Part shown: piece after piece, positions 31,718 to 61,504 of the stretch
Layout of the letters: each line of letters begins with the position of its first letter
How positions within the stretch are numbered: the first letter of the stretch is position 1
Assembly (NCBI GenBank): GCA_052327205.1
Contig: CM126219.1
Location: forward strand, 50,034,001 to 50,098,000
Reading direction: 5' to 3'
Length of the DNA stretch: 64,000 nt
Origin: Somniosus microcephalus
Taxonomy: Eukaryota
Notes under the pieces: model-generated
Databases searched by the model: none
Told to the model about the DNA's origin: nothing
Seen by the model: only the letters and a program-made list of their open reading frames with translations
Made by a program: the position numbers and the translations under genes

Positions 31718-32990
31718 ATACTGTTTGTGTTTTTTGAAGATGTAACCAGTAGGATGGATAAGGGGGAACCAGCAGATGTAGTGTATTTGGATTTTCAAAA
31801 ATCATTCGATAAGGTGGCACACAAGAGATTATTACACAAAATTAGGACTCATAGTATTGGGGGTAATATATTAGCATGGATTGAGGATTGGTTAATGGAC
31901 AGAAAATAGAGCGTAGCAATAAACAGAACTTTTTCAGGTTGGCAGGCTGTGACTAGTGGGGTACCGCAAGGATCAGTGCTTGGGCCTCAGCTATTTACAG
32001 TCTATATTAATGACTTAGATGAAGGGACTGAGTGCAACATATCCAAGTTTGCTGATGATACAAAGTTAGGTGGGAAAGTAAACTGTGAGGAGGATGCAAA
32101 GAGTCTACAGAGAGATATAGACAGGTTGACTGAGTGGGCAAGAACATGGCAAATGGAATACAATGTGGGGAAGTGTGAAGTTATCCACTTTGGTAGGAAA
32201 AACAACAAAGCAGAATATTTTTTGAATGGTGAGAGACTGGGAAGTGTTTGCACACAGAGGGACCTGGGTGTCCTTGTACATGAATCACAGAAAGTTAACA
32301 TGCAGGTACAGCAAGCAATTAGGAAGGCAAATGGTATGTTAGTTTTTGTTACAAAGGGATTAGAGTATAAGAGTAAAGAAGTCTTACTACAATTATACAG
32401 GGCATTGGTGAGGCCACACCTGGAGTACTGTGTACAGTTCTGGTCTACTTACCTAAGAAAAGACATACTTGCCTTAGAGGGAGTGCAACAAAGGTTCACT
32501 AGACTGGTTCCTGAGATGAGGGGATTGCCCTATGAGGAGAGATTGAGTAGCCTAGGTCTATATTCCTTAGAGTTTACAAGAATGAGAGGTTGAAACATAT
32601 AAAATTCTTAAGGGGCTTGACAGGATTAATGCTGGGAAAATGTTTCCACTGGCTAAGGAATCTAGAACACAGGGTCACAGTCACAGAATAAGGGGTCGGC
32701 CATTTAGGATTGAGATGAGGAGAAATTTCTTCACTCAAAGGGTTGTGAATTTTTGTAATTCTCTACCTCAGAGAGCTGTGGATGCTCAGTTGTTGAGTAT
32801 ATTCAAGACAAAGGTCAATAATTTTTGGGGAATTAAGGGAATTAAGGGATATGGGGATAATGCGGGAAGGTGGCGTTGAGGTAGAAGATCAGCCATGATC
32901 TTATTGAATGGCAGAGCAGGCTCCAAGGGCCAAATGGCCTACTCCTGCTCCTATTTCTAATGTTTTTATGTTATGTTCTTATGTTCTAAA
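31718..32990 (+). mobile_element. CR1 LINE, 5'-truncated, RT pseudogene to 3' tail
   Basis: [35 protein letters not shown] and LVRPHLEYCVQFW motifs. Stop codon and frameshift interruptions; (ttatg)n-type tail. Confidence 0.95.
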
Positions 32991-33444
32991 TTACACGTCC
33001 TTGTTCAGACCGTGCGCTGTTCATTTCACAATCCTTCAATCTGATTGATTAAGGAGATACACAGTTGCTTGCCGTGTTCACTCAGATCCCAGATGCCCTG
33101 TAGAGGGCGCAACGCCATTTCCATATTCCACTTCCAGCAACTTCCAGGATGTTAAATGGGCAAGAGCAAGTCTAACTAAGGGCGGGTGCCATTCGTTGTC
33201 CAGTTACAGGAATATTGAGGCCAATAAATGATTAAGGGGAATTTTAAAGTGAGTAAGTGTACTATCATTTGCAGTTTTGTGCACAGCGTCTGCATTGATG
33301 GAAATGGAGAGATGTGACCATCTGAAACTGCACACATTTTCTTAGCACAACAGAAAAGTTAAAATCATTTTTGAGATAACTTTTCTTCAGTCTAATATAC
33401 TCGGTGCAGTCATTTTTTGCTTCAAATGGACACCCAAACTATTG

Positions 33445-33992
33445 AAGTACAGTTTTGGTTTCCATATTTAAGAAAAGATATACTTGCTCTCGAGGCAATT
33501 CAGAGAAGGTTCACTCGGTTGATTCCAGAGATGAGGGGGTTGACTTATGAGGAAAGGTTGAGTAGGTTGGGCCTCTACTCATTGGAATTCAGAAGAATGA
33601 GAGGCGATCTTATCGAAACATATAAGATTGTGAGGGGGCTTGATCGGGTGGGTGCGGGGAGGATGTTTCCACTGATGGGTGAGACTAGAACTAGGGGGCA
33701 TAATCTTAGAATAAGGGGCTGCCATTTCAAAACTGAGATGAGGAGAAACTTCTTCACTCAGAGGGTAGTAAATCTATGGAGTTTGCTACCTCAGAGAGCT
33801 GTGGAAGCTGCGACATTAAATAAATTTATAACGGAGATAGACAGTTTCCTAGCTGATAAGGGAATTAGGGGTTACGGGCAGCGGGCAGGGAAGTGGACGT
33901 GAGTCTAGGTTCAGATCAGCCATGATCCTATTGAATGGCGGTGCAGGCCCGAGGGGCCGTATGGCCTACTCCTGCTCCTACTTCTTATGTAG
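33445..33992 (+). mobile_element. CR1 LINE 3' fragment, reading frame open to the natural stop (33902)
   Basis: VQFWFPYLRKDILALEAIQRRFTRLIP...GYGQRAGKWT*, followed by the 3' UTR. Confidence 0.93.
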
Positions 33993-38400: not shown

Positions 38401-39112
38401 GGTTCAACCATAGCAGAGAATGCAGACAACGGAACCACTGGAGAAGGAGGATAACAAGAGAGTAGGTTTCATGTATGTGACTGCCAAGTTGTAAAACAAA
38501 CAACCTAAAGACCCAGTGCCATTATGCAGAATCTAGGTAGGGTCGATTTGCAGCTACCCAACATGTTGGAAGAATGATGGTTTTTGCACAGATCTATTGA
38601 TGGCATTTAAGAGTAAATTCACCATTTCCGCAGCCTGGAGTTAGGGCTACAATGCTGTCGTGCTAATTTTCTGACCCACACACCTTTTGGAGTAGAAATT
38701 GGTATGCATTACGCTTTTTTTTTCCAAGCATAAAACGGGCGCAACACATACCAATTTAGCAGTGGAACGGCTTGTGCCCATTCTGTACAGGCAATAGTCC
38801 CACTGCTCAATTTGTGGGGCCTGTTTCTTAGGTGTCCTTGTAACACCATTTTTGTGGGTGGAAAACGGGAGCAAACTGGACCAATTTGGGGCATGACATC
38901 CTGCGCCCAATTTGCAGAAGTATTAAGGGGGCTGCCTTATTGGCAGAGGCGACTTTGCAGGCATCCCTGATGGACACCTAAAGCAGGCGTGAGGCCCCTT
39001 ACAAATGTAAACGAGGGGTCGAATGCCTGTTTTAGGACCCATTGCAGAAATTCATCAGCCGGGTCTGCTCCACTCGGAATTCTTAAGTGGTCATTGCGGC
39101 TGAAACAGTGTC

Positions 39113-39373
39113 ATAAATAGACATTCTTATTATGAACACAGCTAGCTTTTGCTAGACACTTTTATTGAGCACATGTGGACTAGGTACAGTATCTGTAGAG
39201 GCATCCATCTTGACTGCTGCCTTCTGGGTAGCCTAGTGCCTCATGGGTAATGTAGTCTTAATACACATACAGCTGGGTAGTGTAGTCTTATACATACAGC
39301 TATATACAGCTCTACACAGCTCTACGGCTCCACCTAGTGTCCACTATAGAATGACATGTTATTGATCATTACA
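39113..39373 (-). repeat. 3' LTR of the Gypsy-type element (distal ~14 bp missing)
   Basis: Starts TGTAATGATC directly after the PPT. Has AATAAA on the minus strand at 39161-39166 (ACTAAA in the 5' LTR). Lacks the equivalent of 41425-41438. Confidence 0.9.
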
Positions 39374-39386
39374 TCCCCCTTTCTTT
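39374..39386 (-). other. Polypurine tract (PPT)
   Basis: AAAGAAAGGGGGA directly upstream of the 3' LTR TG. Confidence 0.9.
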
Positions 39387-39520
39387 GAAGTTTAACAAAA
39401 TCAATATCAATCAACTTTCAAGAAAACAATAAAGATAATATCAATAACACTTTTGTTAGTGCTCTATAAACATAAACATTTTCAAAACAGTCAACACATT
39501 TTCAAAGCTTTACATTGTAC

Positions 39521-39660
39521 TCAAAGATTAAGTCTATCAGGCTCTTTTACTTCACGTGTGGATCTTCTCAACACGGGTAAGTCTGATGTGTCTTCATGAG
39601 ATTGTTCTGGTGGTAAATGACAAGATGCAGTTGCGGCATTGTCATCAATCTGCTCTTGTA
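39521..39660 (-). pseudogene. Gypsy integrase C-terminal tail remnant
   Basis: A third frame reads ...QEQIDDNAATASCHLPPEQSHEDTSDLPVLRRSTREVKEPDRLNL*, the typical RRSxRxxxxPxRL pol terminus. Confidence 0.85.
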
Positions 39661-40440
39661 TAGATCGAGGTCTCCTTGCGATCTTTGCTTGGAGAGGGTT
39701 TCAGTGTTTCCTTCACTCTTCATGCCATAACTCTCAATGTAGTCAATGCACTCTCGAAAAACTGCTGGCAGCTGGATCCCATCATACAGCATAGTCCTCT
39801 CAGCAGCCTCGGCTAATGGAACACCAAAGATTGGCCTGAGGGAAGAAGGAGTATCCACCGGAACTGCTTCCTGCTCTGGTGCAGGCTTCTTCTTTTTCTT
39901 TTTCTCTTTCCACTGCTTAACAACATCTGCTGCGGTTATATCTTTGGACTTTTTCTCCTTGTGTTTTTCCTCTTTGCGCTTTTCTTCCTTTGGCTTCTCT
40001 TTGACCTTAAAGTCTTTTTCTTTCTTTTTGGAGAAACTAGGCTTTTTGAAGACATGGATACCCTTTGGCCTTTTCATCCTTGATGGGCTCTCTGCTTCAT
40101 CACCTGAGTCATCTGGTCTGCTTATGGCACAGTTTATACGGTAGACTCTCTTGACCAGTTCTAAGTCTTCACAAGCTTTGTCACCTAGTATCGAATCAAG
40201 TCTTTCAGCCACAACAGAAAACATGAGATGATGCACTTTGTCTTTGACTGTCACTTTAAGTCTGCATACACCTAAGCTATCTATTTTCTGTCCATTATAG
40301 CTCTTCAGTAGTACTGACTTTTTCTGTATTTTGGGCTTTTCTTCCATATTTTTTATGTCACTCATACTGATTAAGTTTGCTTTTGCCCCAGTGTCTAGTT
40401 TCAATGTAACTAATGCTCCATTTATCTGCAGTGGGATCAT
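39568..40440 (-). CDS. Chimeric ORF: retropepsin-like protease fused in frame to a RALBP1 fragment, 290 aa
   Basis: aa ~1-105 are protease (LKLDTGAKANLI...SILGDKAC). aa 112-244 match RALBP1. The remainder is out-of-frame read-through. Expression unknown. Confidence 0.8.
   Translation of the reverse strand: MIPLQINGALVTLKLDTGAKANLISMSDIKNMEEKPKIQKKSVLLKSYNGQKIDSLGVCRLKVTVKDKVHHLMFSVVAERLDSILGDKACEDLELVKRVYRINCAISRPDDSGDEAESPSRMKRPKGIHVFKKPSFSKKKEKDFKVKEKPKEEKRKEEKHKEKKSKDITAADVVKQWKEKKKKKKPAPEQEAVPVDTPSSLRPIFGVPLAEAAERTMLYDGIQLPAVFRECIDYIESYGMKSEGNTETLSKQRSQGDLDLYKSRLMTMPQLHLVIYHQNNLMKTHQTYPC
39661..39713 (-). pseudogene. RALBP1: Captured RALBP1 fragment 2: extreme C-terminus, in a shifted frame
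   Basis: AAG GAA ACA CTG AAA CCC TCT CCA AGC AAA GAT CGC AAG GAG ACC TCG ATC TA = KETLKPSPSKDRKETSI plus a partial stop. The human C-terminus, as recalled, is KEPAKPSPSRDRKETSI*. Confidence 0.88.
39709..40107 (-). pseudogene. RALBP1: Captured RALBP1 (RLIP76) fragment 1: Lys-rich region and start of RhoGAP domain
   Basis: SGDEAESPSRMKRPKGIHVFKKPSFSKKKEKDFKVKEKPKEEK...DITAADVVKQWKEKKKKKKP...LRPIFGVPLAEAAERTMLYDGIQLPAVFRECIDYIESYGMKSEG. Near-identical to human RALBP1 ~S93-G229 as recalled. Confidence 0.95.
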
Positions 40441-41379
40441 CTATTTGTCCACTTTTACTGCATTGACTTTATGTTCAGCATTGTCCATTTCTGAGGGCTG
40501 CACATTTTCTGTATCTTTTTTGATATCGTCACATGACACCATTCCTACAAAAAATGTCTCACTTAAATCAATGTCCTCAGTCACATTAACTTGTTGCCCT
40601 TTTGTTGTTTTTACTTTTGAAAAGCATTGTTTGGCAAAGTGATTCTTTCCATTACACTTTGTGCACATTTTTCCAAACGCTGGGCATTGTCTTAACTGGT
40701 GTTTGTAACCACAGCATTTACAATTAAAAATTTCATCCTCCGATTGCTTTTCATTTCTGTTCTGCCCATGTTTCTTCCCCTTATAGGACACAGCACCGAC
40801 AGCAGCATTATCACTCATTACAATCGTATCATTATTGATTTCACTGAAAGTCTTCGTGTGCTTTCGAGCTAGCTCGCTGGCTTGGCATATTTTCACTGCA
40901 TTTTCCAAATTTAGTTCGGTTTCTCTCAACAGACGTTCCCTGACTTTTTTATCATGAATACCAAACACAATCTGGTCACGAATCATGGATGATTTCAGCT
41001 CAGAGAAATTACATGTCTGTGCTTTCAGTTTCAGATCAGTTATAAAGCTATCAAAAGTCTCATTTTGTTGCTGTGTCCGAGAACGGAAGATGTATCTTTC
41101 ATAGGTCTCATTCTTTTTGGGAGAGCAATGTGCATCAAATTTTTTTAGCACATCTTCTAATTTTCCTCTGTTCTCCTCTGGATTAAATACAAATATATTA
41201 AATACCTCTATTGCCTGTGGGCCTGCAACCGTAAGCAGCAACGCTATCTTCCTTGCGTCTGGCTTCGTACCGAATCCGATGGCTGCAATATAGAGTTCGA
41301 ATTGTTGTTTAAGAGTCTGCCAATTGTAGTCGATGTTTCCTGTGAGTTTCAAACGCTCTGGTGGCTTCAAATTCTCCAT
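40441..41379 (-). CDS. Retrotransposon Gag (capsid plus nucleocapsid zinc knuckles), 312 aa
   Basis: Probable start MENLKPPERLKLTGNI (ATG at 41379, downstream of the PBS). IRDQIVFGI...RERLLRE motif and CKCCGYKHQLRQC / CTKCNGKNHFAKQC knuckles. Ends at a TAG in frame with, and adjacent to, the protease ORF. Confidence 0.9.
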   Translation of the reverse strand: MENLKPPERLKLTGNIDYNWQTLKQQFELYIAAIGFGTKPDARKIALLLTVAGPQAIEVFNIFVFNPEENRGKLEDVLKKFDAHCSPKKNETYERYIFRSRTQQQNETFDSFITDLKLKAQTCNFSELKSSMIRDQIVFGIHDKKVRERLLRETELNLENAVKICQASELARKHTKTFSEINNDTIVMSDNAAVGAVSYKGKKHGQNRNEKQSEDEIFNCKCCGYKHQLRQCPAFGKMCTKCNGKNHFAKQCFSKVKTTKGQQVNVTEDIDLSETFFVGMVSCDDIKKDTENVQPSEMDNAEHKVNAVKVDK

Positions 41380-41410
41380 GTCGCTTTTCACAATTTTCAG
41401 CAGATCTTCA

Positions 41411-41424
41411 CCATTCTGGTACCA
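41411..41424 (-). other. Primer-binding site (PBS)
   Basis: TGGTACCAGAATGG immediately inside the 5' LTR; TGG is complementary to the tRNA CCA end. Cognate tRNA not determined. Confidence 0.7.
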
Positions 41425-41689
41425 TCTTATGTTCATTAATAAATAGACATTCTTATTATAAACACAGCTAGCTTTTGCTAGACACTTTTAGTGAGCACAT
41501 GTGGACTCGGTACAGTATCTGTAGAGGCATCCATCTTGACTGCTGCCTTGTGGGTAGCCTAGTGCCTCATGGGTAATGTAGTCTTAATACACATACAGCT
41601 GGGTAGTGTAGTCTTATACATACATCTATATACAGCTCTACGGCTCCACCTAGTGTCCACTATAGAATGACATGTTATTGATCATTATA
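41425..41689 (-). repeat. 5' LTR of the Gypsy-type element
   Basis: 41439-41689 aligns to 39113-39373 with 6 substitutions and one 10-bp indel (manual count). Begins TATAATGATC on the minus strand (the other copy has TGTAATGATC) and abuts the PBS. Confidence 0.9.
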
Positions 41690-42119
41690 GTCGTTGCGGC
41701 TGAAACAGTGACAATCACCAAAATGTAAGTTTTTTTGAATAAATTGAAGTGAAGTGTTGCTGTGAAGCTATGAGAATCCGGAGTGCTTCCTTGACTCCAA
41801 AGTCCTCATGATTCTCCCCCCCGCCCCAACCGTTGCTGTTCCAACCCCCCTCCCAGAACTTACATTCCGGTCTTTGCCAGCAAGGCAAGCAGCCTAATAT
41901 TGTTCTTAGTAAAACGCGTGAGCTGCCTGTGGAAGTGTGACAATCACCAGCCTCGGGCCTCCCGTTTGGCTGTTGACATACCAATGGTTACGGACCTGAA
42001 AACCAGCCATAACCAAATTCAGCCCCTCAATAATCCTCTGTTTTTATATTCTAGATTAATAACACGACTAAAATTAGACAAAGCCATCTAACTTCACAAT
42101 ACCAATTTAAACAGATCTA

Positions 42120-45679: not shown

Positions 45680-47310
45680 CATTGGAATACAGAGTAGAAT
45701 TTCTAAATTTGCCAATGACACGAAACTTGGGGGTGTGGCAAACAGTGAGGATGATACCAATCGACTGCAACAGGACGTAGAAAGGCTAGCAGAATGGGCA
45801 GACAAGTGGCAGATTGAATTTAATAATGAGAAGTGTGAGGTGATGCATTTTGGCAGAAGGAACAGGGAGAGGCAATAGACACTTAATGGCACAGTTTTAA
45901 AGAGTGTGCAGAGACAGAGGGAACTGGGAGTTAATGTGCATAGGTCCCTGAAGGTGGCGGGACATCTTGAGAGAGTGGTTAACAAAGCATATGGAATCTT
46001 GGGCTTCATAAATAGAGGTATTGAGTACAAAAGTAGAGAAGTTATGTTGAACCTTTATAAAGCGCTGGTTAGGCCACAACTGGAGTACTGCGTCCAGTTC
46101 TGGTCACCGGACTTTAGGAAGGAGGTGAAGGCCCTTGAGAGGGTGCAGCGGAGATTTACCAGAATGGTTCCATGGATGGGGGATCTTAGCTACAAGGACA
46201 GGTTGGAGAAGCTGGATTTGTTTTCAATAGAGCAAAGGAGGTTGAGGGATGATTTGATAGAGGTGTGCAAGATTATGACGGGTTTGGATAGGCTAGATGG
46301 AGAAAGGCTGATGGTACAAGGACTAGGGGACACAGATTAAGGTTTTGGGCAAGAGATACAGGGGGGAATGTGAGGAAAAACGTTTTTACGCAGTGAGTGG
46401 TGAGGACCTGGAACTCACTGCCGATGGAAGTGGTGGAAACGGAGACACTCAGGGGGAAAAATTGGGTGAGTAGCGCCACCTCTTAGCGCCTAAAGAGGCA
46501 GTCAGTGGCTGTAGCGCCACTGGCTGCGCCTCCCGCGATATTCAGCAGGGGCACTAATGGTGGCATTAGCCATTTGCGCTGCGCCGCCACCGATGACATC
46601 ATCGGTGTGCGCAGCACCCCATTTGCGCCCCGTTCGCGATATTTGGTAGCGAACGCCGCAGTTGCGCCGTTCGCTACCCGCGCCCGGTTCACGGGGCCTT
46701 ACTGTGCCGGCAGCGGCGCAAGTTAAGGTGGAGGTGCAGGGCGGCCGCCTTTTTCGTCAGCCGCCTGCCAGCACCTCTGTCCCCGGCCTCCTAACCCCCC
46801 CCCCCCCCGTGGCATTGCCGGCTGTTTCCCGAGAGCCCGGCACTTCTCCTTGGTGCCGGGCTCGTTTGCCGGCACTCGCGAGTGGTGATCGCATTGTTGC
46901 AGGCCCCTCCCCCTTAACAGTGGGAGGAAGGCCTGCAGTACCGCAGCGCGCCGTGCCGCAGCGTGTGGCGCTGTGGCACGTTGCGCTGCGATATTCAGTT
47001 TCAGCGCCTCAAGAGGGACGCGGAGCGCCTCGAGCCGCGCCCCGTCTCCCTCTAGGGGCGCTTCAACTGAATTTGCGGCGCAAATTCCAGCGCACAAGCG
47101 AACTTTGCGCTGATTGGGCGCCTCAGGCCAATTCCTAGGCCTCAATGTTTTCAAGGGGGGAACTGGATAGGCACTTGAGGGAAATAAACTAGCAGGGCTA
47201 CGGGGATAGAGCTGGGGAATGAGACTTACTGGATTGCTCTACAAAGAGCCGGCATGGACTCAGTGGGCTGAATGGCCTCCTTCTGTGCCATTATGACGCT
47301 ATGACTCTAT
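45680..47310 (+). mobile_element. CR1 LINE 3' fragment interrupted by MITE 46452-47141
   Basis: ORFs 45654..45878 (ISKFANDTKLGG) and 45906..46340 (LVRPQLEYCVQFWSP). Tail atgacgctatgactctatg. Confidence 0.92.
46452..47141. mobile_element. Harbinger-type MITE inserted in a CR1 3' region
   Basis: TCA duplication at 46449-46451 and 47142-47144. Ends GGGGGAAAAATTGG / CCAATTCCTAGGCC. CR1 sequence is continuous once it is removed. Confidence 0.85.
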
Positions 47311-50305: not shown

Positions 50306-52228
50306 TCATAGAGTCATAGAGTTATACAACACAGAAAGAGGCCCTTCAGCCCATCGTGTCCATGCTGGCCATCAAGTCCTGTCTATTCTAATCCCATTTT
50401 CCAGCACTTGGTCCGTAGCCTTGTATGCTATGGCGTTTCAAGTGCTCATCTAAATACTTCTTGAATGTTGCGAGGGTTTCAGGCAGTGAGTTCCAGATTC
50501 CAACCACCCTCTGGGTGAAAAAGCTTTTCCTCAAATCCCCTCTAAACCTCCTGCCCCTTATCTTGAAACTATGTCCCCTGGTTATTGACCCCTCTACTAA
50601 GGGGAAAAGTTACTTTCTATCTACCCTATCTATGCCTCTCATAATTTTGTACACCTCAATCAGGTCCCCCCTCAGCCTTCTTTGCTCTAAAGAAAATAAC
50701 ACCAGCCTGTCCAGCCTCTCTTCATAGCTGAAGTACTCAGAATCACAGAAGAATCACAGAAACCCCACAGTGCAGATAGAGGCCATTTCGGCCCATCGAG
50801 CCTGCACCGACACATATCCCACCCGATCCCCGTTACCCCTACACCAACACATATCCCACCCCTATCCCCGTAACCCCACGTATTTAATCCCCCTAACACT
50901 AAAGTCAATTTTATCATAGCCAATCAACCTAACCCGCACAACCTACTCCAGCCCAGGTAACAGCCTGGTGAATCTCCTCTGCACCCTCTCCAATGCAATC
51001 ACACCCTTCCTATAGTGTGGCGATCAGAACTGCACACAGTATTCCAGCTGTGGCCTAACTAGCGTTTTGTACAGCTTCACCATAACCTCCCTGCTCTTAT
51101 ATTCTATGCCTCGGCTAATGAAGGCAAGTATCCCATATGCCTTTTTAACCACCTTATCTACCTGTCCTGCTGCCTTCAGGGATCTATGTACATGTACACC
51201 AAGGTTCCTCTGATAATCTGTCCTTCCTAGGGTCCTACCATTCATTGTGTATTCCCTTGCCTTGTTAGTCCTCCCAAAATGCATCACCTCACACTTTTCA
51301 GGGTTAAATTGCATTTGCCTCTGTTCTGCCCATCTAACCAACCCATCTATATTGTCCTGTAGCCTGAGGCTTCCCTCCTCACTATTTACCACTCCACCAA
51401 TTTTCGTGTCATCTGCGAACTTACTGATCATACCTTCTATATTCATATCTAAATCATTAATATACACTACAAACAGCAAAGGACCCTGCAACGATCCCTG
51501 TGGTACACCATTGGACACAGGCTTCCAGTCACAAATACAACCTTCGACCATCACCCTCTGCCTCCTGCCACTAAGCCAATTTTGGATCCAATGTGCCAAA
51601 TTGCCCTGGATCCCATGGGCTCTTACCTTCTTGACCAGTCTCCCATGCGGGACTTTGTCAAAAGGCTTCCTGAAGTCCATGTAGACTACATCAACTGCAC
51701 TACCCTCATCCACACACCTAGTCACCCCCTCGAAAAATTCGATCAAATTGGTTAGACATGATCGCCCCCTGACAAAACCATGCTGACTATCCTTGATTAA
51801 TCCTTGCCTCTCCAAGTGGAGACTAATTCTGTCCCTCAGAATTTTTTCCAATAATTTCCCTACCACTGATGTTAGGCTCACTGGCCTGTAATTCCCTGGT
51901 TTATCCCTACTACCCTTCTTGAATAATGGTACTACTTTAGCTGTCCTCCAGTCCTCTGGCACCTCCCCTGTGGCCAGAGAGGTTCTGAAAATATGCGTCA
52001 GAGTTCCTGCAATCTCCTTCCTTGCCTCACACAGCAGCCTGGGATACATCTCGTCTGGGCTTGGGGATTTACCCACTTTTAAGCCCGCTAAAACCGCTAG
52101 TACCTCCTCCCTCTCAATACTAATTTGTTCAAGTATATCACACTCCCCCTGCCTGATTTCTATGCCTACATCGTCCTTCTCCATAGTGAACACAGATGCA
52201 AATATTCATTTAAAACCTCACCTACATC
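50306..52228 (-). mobile_element. CR1 LINE with a 389-codon open RT segment (51024..52193)
   Basis: [40 protein letters not shown] motifs. Premature TGA where W is expected after YCVQF. Tail tcatagagtcatagag. Confidence 0.95.
50739..50943 (-). mobile_element. HE1-like elasmobranch SINE fragment nested in CR1
   Basis: CR1-type tail (aatcacagaagaatcacagaaacc...ggccatttcggcccatcgag) plus caattttatcatagccaatcaacctaacccgcaca. TACTC duplication at 50734-50738 and 50944-50948. Confidence 0.65.
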
Positions 52229-59709: not shown

Positions 59710-61504
59710 TAAGTGTCTGTCTTCACGGAAGACACAAAAAATTTCCCGGAAATAGTGGAGAACCAAGGCTCTAGCGAGAATGAGGAACTGAAAGAAATTA
59801 GTATTAGTAAAAAAAATAGTTCTGGAGAAATTAATGGGACTGAAAGTCAATTAATCCCTTGGACCTGATGGCCTACATCCTAGGGTTTTGAAAGAAGTGG
59901 CTATAGAGATAGTGGATGCATTGGTTGTCATTTTCCAAAATTCCATAAATTCGAGAACGATTCCCGCAGATTGGAAGGTGGAAAATGTAACTCCACTATT
60001 TAAGAAAGGAGGGAGAGAGAAAACTGGGAACTACAAACCAGTTAGCCTGACATCAGTAGTAGGGAAAATGCTAGAATCTATTATTAAGGACGTGGTAACA
60101 GGGCACTTAGAAAATAATAATAGGATTGGGCAGAGTCAACACGGATTTATGAAAGGGAAACCGTGTTTGACAAATCTGTTAGAGTTTTTTGAGGTTGTAA
60201 CTAGCAGAATAGATAAGGAGGAACCAGTGGATGTAGTGTATTTGGATTTTCAGAAGGCATTCGATAAGGTGCCAAACAAGAGGTTATTAAACAAAATTAG
60301 GCCTCATGGGATTGGGGGTAATATATTGCATGGATTTAGGATTGGTTAATGGACAGAAAACAGAGAGTAGGAATAAACGGGTCATTTTCGGGTTGGCAGG
60401 CTGTAACTAGTGGGGTACCGCAAGGATCAGTGCTTGGGCCTCAGCTGTTCACAATCTACATCAATGATTTGGATGAGGGGACCAAATGTAATATATCCAA
60501 GTTTGCTGATGATACAAAGTTGGTTGAAATGTAAGTTGTGAGGAGGATGCAAGGAGGCTTCAAGGGGATATAGACAGGCTAAGTGAGTAGGCAAGAACAT
60601 GGCAAATGGAATTTAATGTGGAGAAATGTGAAGTTATCCACTTTGGCAGGAAAAATAGAAAAGCAGAGTATTTTTTAAATGGTGAGAGATTGGGAAATGT
60701 TGGTGTTCAGAGGGACCTGGGTGTCCTTGTACACGAATCACTGAAAGTTAACATGCAGGTACAGCAAGCAATTAGGAAAGCAAATGGTATGTTGGCCTTT
60801 ATTACAAGAGGATTTGAGTATAAGAGTAAAGACGTCTTGTTGCAATTATACAGGGCCCTGGTGAGACCACACCTGGAGTATTGTGTACAGTTGTGGTCTC
60901 CTTACCTAAGGAAGGATATACTTGCCATAGAGGGATGCAACAAAGGTTCACCAGACTGGTCCCTGGAATGAGGGGATTGTCCTATGAGGAGAGATTGAGT
61001 AGACTAAGCCTATATTCTCTAGAGTTTATATGAATGAGAGTGATTTCATTGAAACATAATTTTTTTTTTAATAGGACTTGATGCAGGTAGATGCAGGGAG
61101 GATGTTTCCCCTGGCTGGGGAGTCTAAAACCAGGGGTCACAGTCTCAGAATAAGGGGTTAGCCATTTAGGACTGAGATGAGGAGACATTTCTTCACTCAG
61201 AGGGTGGTGAATCTTTGGAATTCTCTACCCCAGAGGGCAGTGGAGACTCAGTCGTTGAGTATATTTAAGACAGAGATTGATAGATTTTTGAATATTAAGT
61301 GAACCAAGGGATATGGAGATAGTGCAGGAAAGTGGAGATGAGGTAGAAGATCAGCCATGATCTTATTGAATGGCAGAGCAGGCTTGAAGGGCCAAATGGC
61401 CTACTCCTGCACCTACTTCTTATGTTCTTACAATGGAAGATCAAAACATTTTCTTTCACAATTAAAAACAGCTGGCAATCACACATAGGTTTCAAAGACA
61501 CACA

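Follow-up and report, generated by a model that had tools for sequence, protein, structure and literature searches.

What becomes of a host gene fragment that has taken the place of a retrotransposon's own enzymes? The question is raised by a 64,000-nucleotide stretch of the Somniosus microcephalus genome (GenBank assembly GCA_052327205.1, contig CM126219.1, positions 50,034,001 to 50,098,000; hereafter the window), which carries on its minus strand, at 39113..41689, a copy of a Ty3/Gypsy long terminal repeat (LTR) retrotransposon. An initial annotation of this DNA had proposed that the reverse transcriptase (RT), RNase H and integrase core of the element were replaced by coding sequence of the signalling gene RALBP1, joined in frame to the protease, and that the element depends on a helper. 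We find that the missing region is present in a family of related elements, that the native RALBP1 frame is kept at the junction with the protease, and that about 3,000 copies share this structure. Probably a single capture founded a helper-dependent family in which the RALBP1 piece is a passenger that keeps a reading frame open by chance.

Copies and their integration

Exact junction words (21 and 22 nucleotides [nt]), sought across the 6.45-Gb genome, gave 2,436 and 2,498 matches evenly split between the strands, while the reversed control words gave none. Corrected for a decay of 0.7-1.2%, these counts correspond to ∼2,800-3,250 copies, or about 3,000, and to a family total of ∼8 Mb, larger than the multi-copy family that had been guessed at. 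A search with the whole element placed it at 39 other sites with 97-98% identity among the best 40 scored of 4,739 candidates. Sequence comparisons were made with the 40 closest copies and with a position-ordered set consisting of the first 16 copies listed, 13 of which are near full length. All junctions are the same in 40 of 40 closest copies, and among the ordered copies junction A is shared by 14 of 16 and junction C by 16 of 16. A 15-nt gap and five differences from the host gene are likewise the same in every copy that covers them.

Target-site duplications of 5 bp, with at most one mismatch, flank 46 of the 56 copies (35 exact, 11 with one mismatch); four of the other ten are odd and six lack a recognisable end. 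The two LTRs of a copy differ on average by 1.6% in 40 copies and by 1.5% in 13. At the mutation rate given for the epaulette shark, 7e-10 per generation (PMC10587355), this divergence corresponds to ∼1e7 generations (5e6 to 6e7 over the interval of the rate), an age that is not a calendar date because the rate is borrowed from another species.

The captured sequence and its junctions

The translated insert is 83% identical over 145 amino acids (aa) to whale-shark RALBP1 (aa 86-230). The best four of 342 protein-database hits for its frame are cartilaginous-fish proteins, and all of the 120 hits listed have RALBP1-type RhoGAP domains, with at most 89% identity. The insert also matches Protein Data Bank (PDB) entry 2mbg (E 6.5e-19). 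Three genome searches each matched the host RALBP1 gene, on contig C7, once; it was examined at three short loci rather than as a whole gene.

Aligning the insert to these loci upheld the identity of the ∼450 bp of RALBP1 sequence that had been annotated and resolved it into two pieces. Piece 1 (39710..40108, 399 nt, ∼aa 92-230) derives from an early coding exon and matches it at 392 of 414 nt; fifteen of the differences form one in-frame 15-nt gap where a single repeat unit is missing, and five further differences are found family-wide. Piece 2 (39662..39716, 55 nt) comes from the final coding exon, whose closing stretch it matches at 55 of 55 nt as far as the host stop codon; this exon lies 39 kb from that of piece 1, and piece 2 is read in another frame. 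The pieces overlap by 7 nt. Both are coding, in sense orientation and in gene order, with no intron base, and ∼2.5 kb of helper RT, RNase H and integrase sequence has been replaced by these 447 nt, not interrupted by them.

Each junction contains a microhomology, read off the actual host, element and helper sequences. At junction A (40104..40108) the 5-nt word CTCAG is common to one helper variant and the RALBP1 exon; at junction B (39710..39716) the 7-nt word GTGAAGG, the overlap of the two pieces, is common to both RALBP1 exons; and at junction C, where a remnant of the helper integrase tail (39521..39663) begins out of frame with the fusion, the word is the 2-nt CT, which is within chance. 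The native frame is kept at one of the three junctions, A, as expected by chance. Junction A lies 31 nt inside its exon and junction B 17 nt before a donor, and neither coincides with a splice site.

RALBP1 is described as having a RhoGAP domain at aa 192-368, with Arg232 as the arginine finger, and a Ral-binding domain at aa 393-446, and the human protein as having a polybasic region at aa 154-170 and an R-Ras site at aa 180-192 (PMC8124665). Piece 1 covers the polybasic disordered region, the R-Ras site and the first ∼40 aa of the RhoGAP domain, and breaks off three residues short of the arginine finger, which is Arg232 in the human protein. It contains 34 lysines and arginines in 132 aa, and the insert has purine runs of 17 and 26 nt. 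Judged by what it encodes, the piece cannot work either as a GTPase-activating protein or as a Ral effector. Searching the genome for the Ral-binding domain (PF20924) gave one match among 51 candidates, the host gene, and hence no near-full-length captured form was seen.

At window position 39777 the element encodes Ile, as do the five other RALBP1 proteins compared from cartilaginous fish, whereas the host gene encodes Leu; an older host allele of RALBP1 seems to survive in the family at this site.

The helper family

A pattern that excludes the insert gave 5,444 helper-type matches in the genome, and 100 of the 100 matches listed run on into the same non-RALBP1 sequence. Copies with junction A thus represent a fraction of 0.31 of junction-A and helper-type hits combined. 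For comparison we took six helper copies, namely the three plus-strand copies listed first for each of two variants; they differ from the capture copies by 3.9-7.7% over gag and protease. The longest is ∼4.65 kb, compared with 2.6 kb for the capture family, and one helper has a stop-free stretch of 1,369 codons. Two in-frame helper translations contain RT, RNase H and integrase domains (Pfam), in the order protease-RT-RNase H-integrase, and the best PDB match is the Ty3 Gag-Pol (E 3e-62), with retroviral RTs at E 1e-24 or weaker. An autonomous relative of the kind that the initial annotation had asked to be sought is present, as a family of Ty3-like elements.

The protease (40109-40440) is 79-83% identical to several database proteins, among them one from the cyprinid Anabarilius grahami, which in a separate comparison was 67% identical over 150 aa. 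Such identity is high between a shark and a bony fish, and the helper family may have been transferred horizontally.

A uniform insert in mosaic flanks

The insert and the sequences around it differ in their variation. Among the 40 closest copies, the insert (440 nt compared) has no non-CpG site at which a minor state occurs in three or more copies, while the 5′ LTR, gag, protease and 3′ LTR have 24-32 such sites per kb. Shared minor states in the 5′ LTR-gag-protease region are found in one of the six helper copies in 35 of 44 cases, compared with only 18 of 265 singleton states, and of 395 site pairs separated by 100-500 nt, 293 fail the four-gamete test. In the ordered copies the pairwise distance rises from 1.8% in the insert to 3.1% in the protease, 4.2% in gag and 5.8% in the 3′ LTR, and the type of LTR is no predictor of insert distance.

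A uniform cassette in mosaic flanks points to co-packaging with helper RNA, a cause suggested by established retroelement biology. The insert, which has no counterpart in the helper, would have stayed uniform while gag, protease and LTRs recombined. Later gene conversion may be an alternative source of the mosaic flanks.

Coding state

Gag is open in 31 of the 40 closest copies, and the frame that starts at the gag ATG has exactly 603 codons in 23 of them. The predicted ∼603-aa Gag-protease-RALBP1 frame is thus real in the family but not in the window copy, where a stop codon at 40443-40441 separates gag from protease; a stop at this point also occurs in four of the 40 closest copies. Only one of 14 position-ordered copies with the gag ATG region has the 603-codon frame, and the 16 ordered copies show 25 break or indel events, of which one kind only recurs. 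Many 603-codon copies together with non-recurring breaks indicate that the source had an open frame and that its copies decayed separately.

Changes in gag and protease found in single copies look neutral, with a ratio of nonsynonymous to synonymous change (omega) of 1.0-1.3. Shared gag variants have an omega of 0.5 (p 0.003-0.007); purifying selection on the family's own gag was rejected as the reason, because the shared variants mostly occur in the helper as well. Within the insert, seven stops are observed against 7.2 expected, and stops are therefore not depleted. The RALBP1 frame is open for 179 codons, and the other two frames stop after 10 and 1. None of 86 protein-database hits covers both halves of the fusion.

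Transcription

Raw reads were available from two RNA runs that share the species label of the best holder of the element, and ∼24% and ∼31% of each were read. RNA-seq reads cover the insert, at a mean depth of 227 and 153, or an abundance of ∼100-135 reads per kb per million. First mates fall on the plus strand in 94% and 64% of cases, leaving a minority strand of 6% and 36%. Plus-strand first mates would represent the element's sense, as they do in most stranded libraries. Depth is unbroken over junction B. Among the rows listed, reads with a loose end at junction A or C are of the helper type, and no host-type loose end, no 15-nt insertion and no host allele at 39777 was found; a further 157 loose-end rows and 43 difference rows lie beyond this listing, and the statement that RNA from the insert is mostly element-derived is a bound and not a count. 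In one run, but not in the other, a variant at 39700 accounts for 65 of 216 first-mate reads on the plus strand, a share that suggests one dominant locus.

For organisms B and C, which carry two further species labels, contigs cover every one of the 30 bins of the region; runs of organisms D-I, with shares of 0.18-0.41, are not counted as evidence. The ratio of insert to protease depth is 0.33 in B and 0.14 in C, compared with 0.31 from junction counts in the element's own genome, and an 84-nt contig of organism C bridges junction A. A second run of the organism C sample has next to none of the element's words, and C is consequently less secure than B. The element is transcribed, and it occurs under one or more species labels besides its own.

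In organism B one contig omits 545 nt (window 39549-40095), and at 39599-39601 many RNA reads pass from the element into a different sequence. These skips and exits suggest that there are other derivatives, or that a subfamily of the helper has a tail of another kind.

Layout of the window copy

Every part of the annotated cis-architecture could be located on the minus strand. The 5′ LTR (41425..41689, 265 bp) ends TAAGA and begins with TA here, compared with TG in most other copies. The primer-binding site (PBS; TGGTACCAG, 41416..41424) directly adjoins it; no tRNA gene was found within the window. Gag (40444..41379) has 312 codons from its ATG and a weak match to a CCHC zinc knuckle, under the Pfam cut-off. 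Beyond the stop codon (40441..40443) runs a 290-codon frame with the protease first and then RALBP1. The aspartic protease and a short linker (40109..40440) have a DTG motif at 40395-40387 and score over the Pfam cut-off, and the fusion frame terminates at 39570-39568. A polypurine tract (PPT; 39374..39388) precedes the 3′ LTR (39113..39373), which lacks its last ∼15 nt; the LTR pair is 98% alike over 203 nt. The ends of this copy are atypical also in their flanks, where a repeat of 21-24 bp (39090..39113 on the left, 41690..41713 on the right) stands in place of the 5-bp duplication.

Other copies vary in their ends too. Among 50 copies with both ends, mostly from the closest set, 42 have termini TG...GA, six TG...CA and two other; in the 15 ordered copies that show it, the 5′ LTR ends CA in eight and GA in seven. 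LTR termini of TG...CA are usual but not universal, and LTRs that end TAAGA rather than TAACA (41425-41429) have integrated with ordinary 5-bp duplications (copies L002-L065). Flank duplications of ∼21-33 bp occur in three of 56 copies and a clipped 3′ end in four, the window copy included (L016, L035, L015, L032 and L063 are concerned). Long flank repeats and clipped ends of this kind resemble one-ended integration at a poor terminus, as known from retrovirus work. Copies L011 and L014, on different contigs, have the same 5′ flank, and thus some copies have spread within a larger duplicated unit. Near 84.74, 135.34 and 199.89 Mb of contig C1, the distance between junctions A and B is 1.2-5.1 kb, against the usual ∼0.4 kb, probably through later insertions. 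Strand-biased G-to-A editing was not seen (G>A 12.1 versus C>T 14.4 per 100 sites).

Around the element no host exon was recognised in the window. Open frames at 31910-32593, 33396-33902, 45879-46340, 51024-52205 and 59855-60349 resemble fragments that we take to be CR1-type LINE reverse transcriptases.

Origin of the family

The following events would account for these findings. A RALBP1 transcript would have entered a particle made by an autonomous Gypsy family, where reverse transcriptase may have switched template at short matching words, from element to RALBP1, on to the last RALBP1 exon, and back to the element; the middle jump, between RALBP1 exons, could instead be a later deletion. 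The product has neither RT nor RNase H and little of integrase, but it keeps its LTRs, PBS, PPT and gag-protease, and its length is down from ∼4.65 to 2.6 kb. The helper's enzymes would then have made the ∼3,000 copies, and capture RNA would often have been co-packaged with helper RNA, with gag, protease and LTRs recombining with those of helper variants.

Several points weigh against a passenger captured in this way. Neither piece contains an exon-exon junction, so that a spliced template is presumed. The closest-40 set is biased to well-preserved copies, the unbiased 16 all come from contig C1, and three of the six helper copies are partial. The principal result against a pure passenger is a weak synonymous excess in the insert relative to the host exon. 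Omega is 0.72 in 54 copies (p 0.05), 0.80 with each change counted once (p 0.115) and 0.65 in the closest 40 (p 0.03), and it is ∼1.0-1.2 in two shifted frames, where the excess is absent. In this dN/dS comparison, of the kind proposed at the outset, the excess is not significant in the 14 unbiased copies (omega 0.87, p 0.36).

This excess would be expected if the captured piece had aided the element, whether as a lysine-rich tail on Gag-protease (for membrane or RNA binding, or R-Ras contact), as an open frame, or through purine runs, and had raised packaging, RNA stability or priming until the capture form made up a third of the family. The retained polybasic region and R-Ras site (PMC8124665), the basic composition and purine runs, the length of the open RALBP1 frame and the junction-A share all agree with such a role. 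However, stops are not depleted, the unbiased copies lack a significant signal, gag and protease singletons are unconstrained, one in-frame junction in three is chance, and small size alone may account for the success of the element; we regard a benefit to the element as unlikely. The RALBP1 piece might serve some function, but none is supported. Still less probable is an effect of the family on its host, in which sense and antisense RNA ∼98% identical to RALBP1 mRNA would feed small RNAs or a truncated protein that damps RALBP1, or one copy would have been co-opted. The depth of insert RNA, its minority strand, the lack of host-type insertions and loose ends among the rows listed and the dominance of the 39700 variant in one run could be read in this way, but the RNA abundance, divided among ∼3,000 copies, amounts to little for each, and no database protein covers both fusion halves.

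Microhomology also marks DNA repair, and the missing exon-exon junction leaves room for a capture at the DNA level, with a break in the element repaired from RALBP1 DNA or LINE-made cDNA and amplification afterwards. That the two pieces are coding, keep their order over 39 kb and include no intron base argues against this, as does the replacement of open reading frames (ORFs) with microsimilarity at the switch points, a published signature of template switching (PMC5131818), and we give a DNA-level capture very little credence. An assembly chimera or one-off dead insertion has practically no probability. It is true that no read or contig among those listed spans the whole 1.2-kb stretch, but the junction counts, dispersed in thousands over both strands, and the distinct target duplications rule it out, and the continuous RNA depth over junction B and the organism C contig across junction A agree with them.

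Discussion

Acutely transforming retroviruses with gag-onc fusions carry host coding sequence in the gag frame in place of pol, keep their cis signals and need a helper. The element shares these properties, although the helper pol here is Ty3-like, a 4.65-kb helper has no room for env, the cargo has lost both its catalytic and its effector-binding part, and spread is by germline insertion. The gag-onc-like function implied by the initial annotation is not borne out by a near-neutral piece that ends before the arginine finger, has no Ral-binding domain and is not depleted of stops.

LTR-mediated retrocopies are known from fly to human, including zebrafish and chicken (Tan et al. 2016, PMC5131818). 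As in the present family, host mRNA sequence replaces internal ORFs, with microsimilarity at the switch points. The same source gives two fly retrocopies found at two or more insertion sites (18 sites for nine retrocopies) and proposes further amplification as a non-autonomous element as a scenario; here there are ∼3,000 copies and a recombination record. The layout had thus already been described in vertebrates, while no description of a RALBP1 capture family was found in the literature searched, which lay mostly outside subscription journals and wholly outside repeat databases. The mechanism is published, and it is the scale that is new within that literature.

Plant TR-GAG elements (PMC8704663) resemble the capture family in being transcribed LTR elements that keep a Gag ORF, lack RT and integrase and have an autonomous relative, by which they are mobilised. 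Here, by contrast, the host is a vertebrate, and host coding sequence, joined in frame to Gag-protease, stands in place of what was lost. The capture family's own Gag may be made and used. Maize Bs1 (PMC13317346) is likewise an LTR element with captured host-gene fragments, none full length; its pieces stem from three genes and have given rise to a chimeric gene that is translated, whereas here there are two pieces of one gene, a very high copy number and no support for a host function.

The scenario proposed by Tan et al., of an LTR-mediated retrocopy multiplying as a non-autonomous element, now has an observed case in a vertebrate germline. The host-derived insert, which cannot recombine with the helper, serves as a natural marker, and the family preserves a record of co-packaging and template switching from thousands of events. 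RALBP1 RNA-seq counts and retrocopy catalogues in these species will be confounded by it.

A 2026 preprint (10.64898/2026.06.26.734816) gives MIPOL1, SUDS3, SDF2L1, SLU7 and ZNF276 as the top retrocopy parents of cartilaginous fishes, with no RALBP1 in its main text, and discusses these unusual parents as formation bias and selective filtering. In the shark genome studied here amplified SLU7 was not seen, only five exons of one locus. It is conceivable, if rather unlikely, that the RALBP1 piece is not inert, with a polybasic Gag-protease tail, or two-strand RNA 98% identical to RALBP1 mRNA from thousands of loci, driving the success of the family or regulating the host gene in trans, and that, more widely, the retrocopies of those five parents could be amplified Gypsy capture families. 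The capture family offers a testable alternative for the unusual parents and, if they prove to be of this kind, LTR capture followed by helper-driven amplification would be a main route of gene duplication in sharks.

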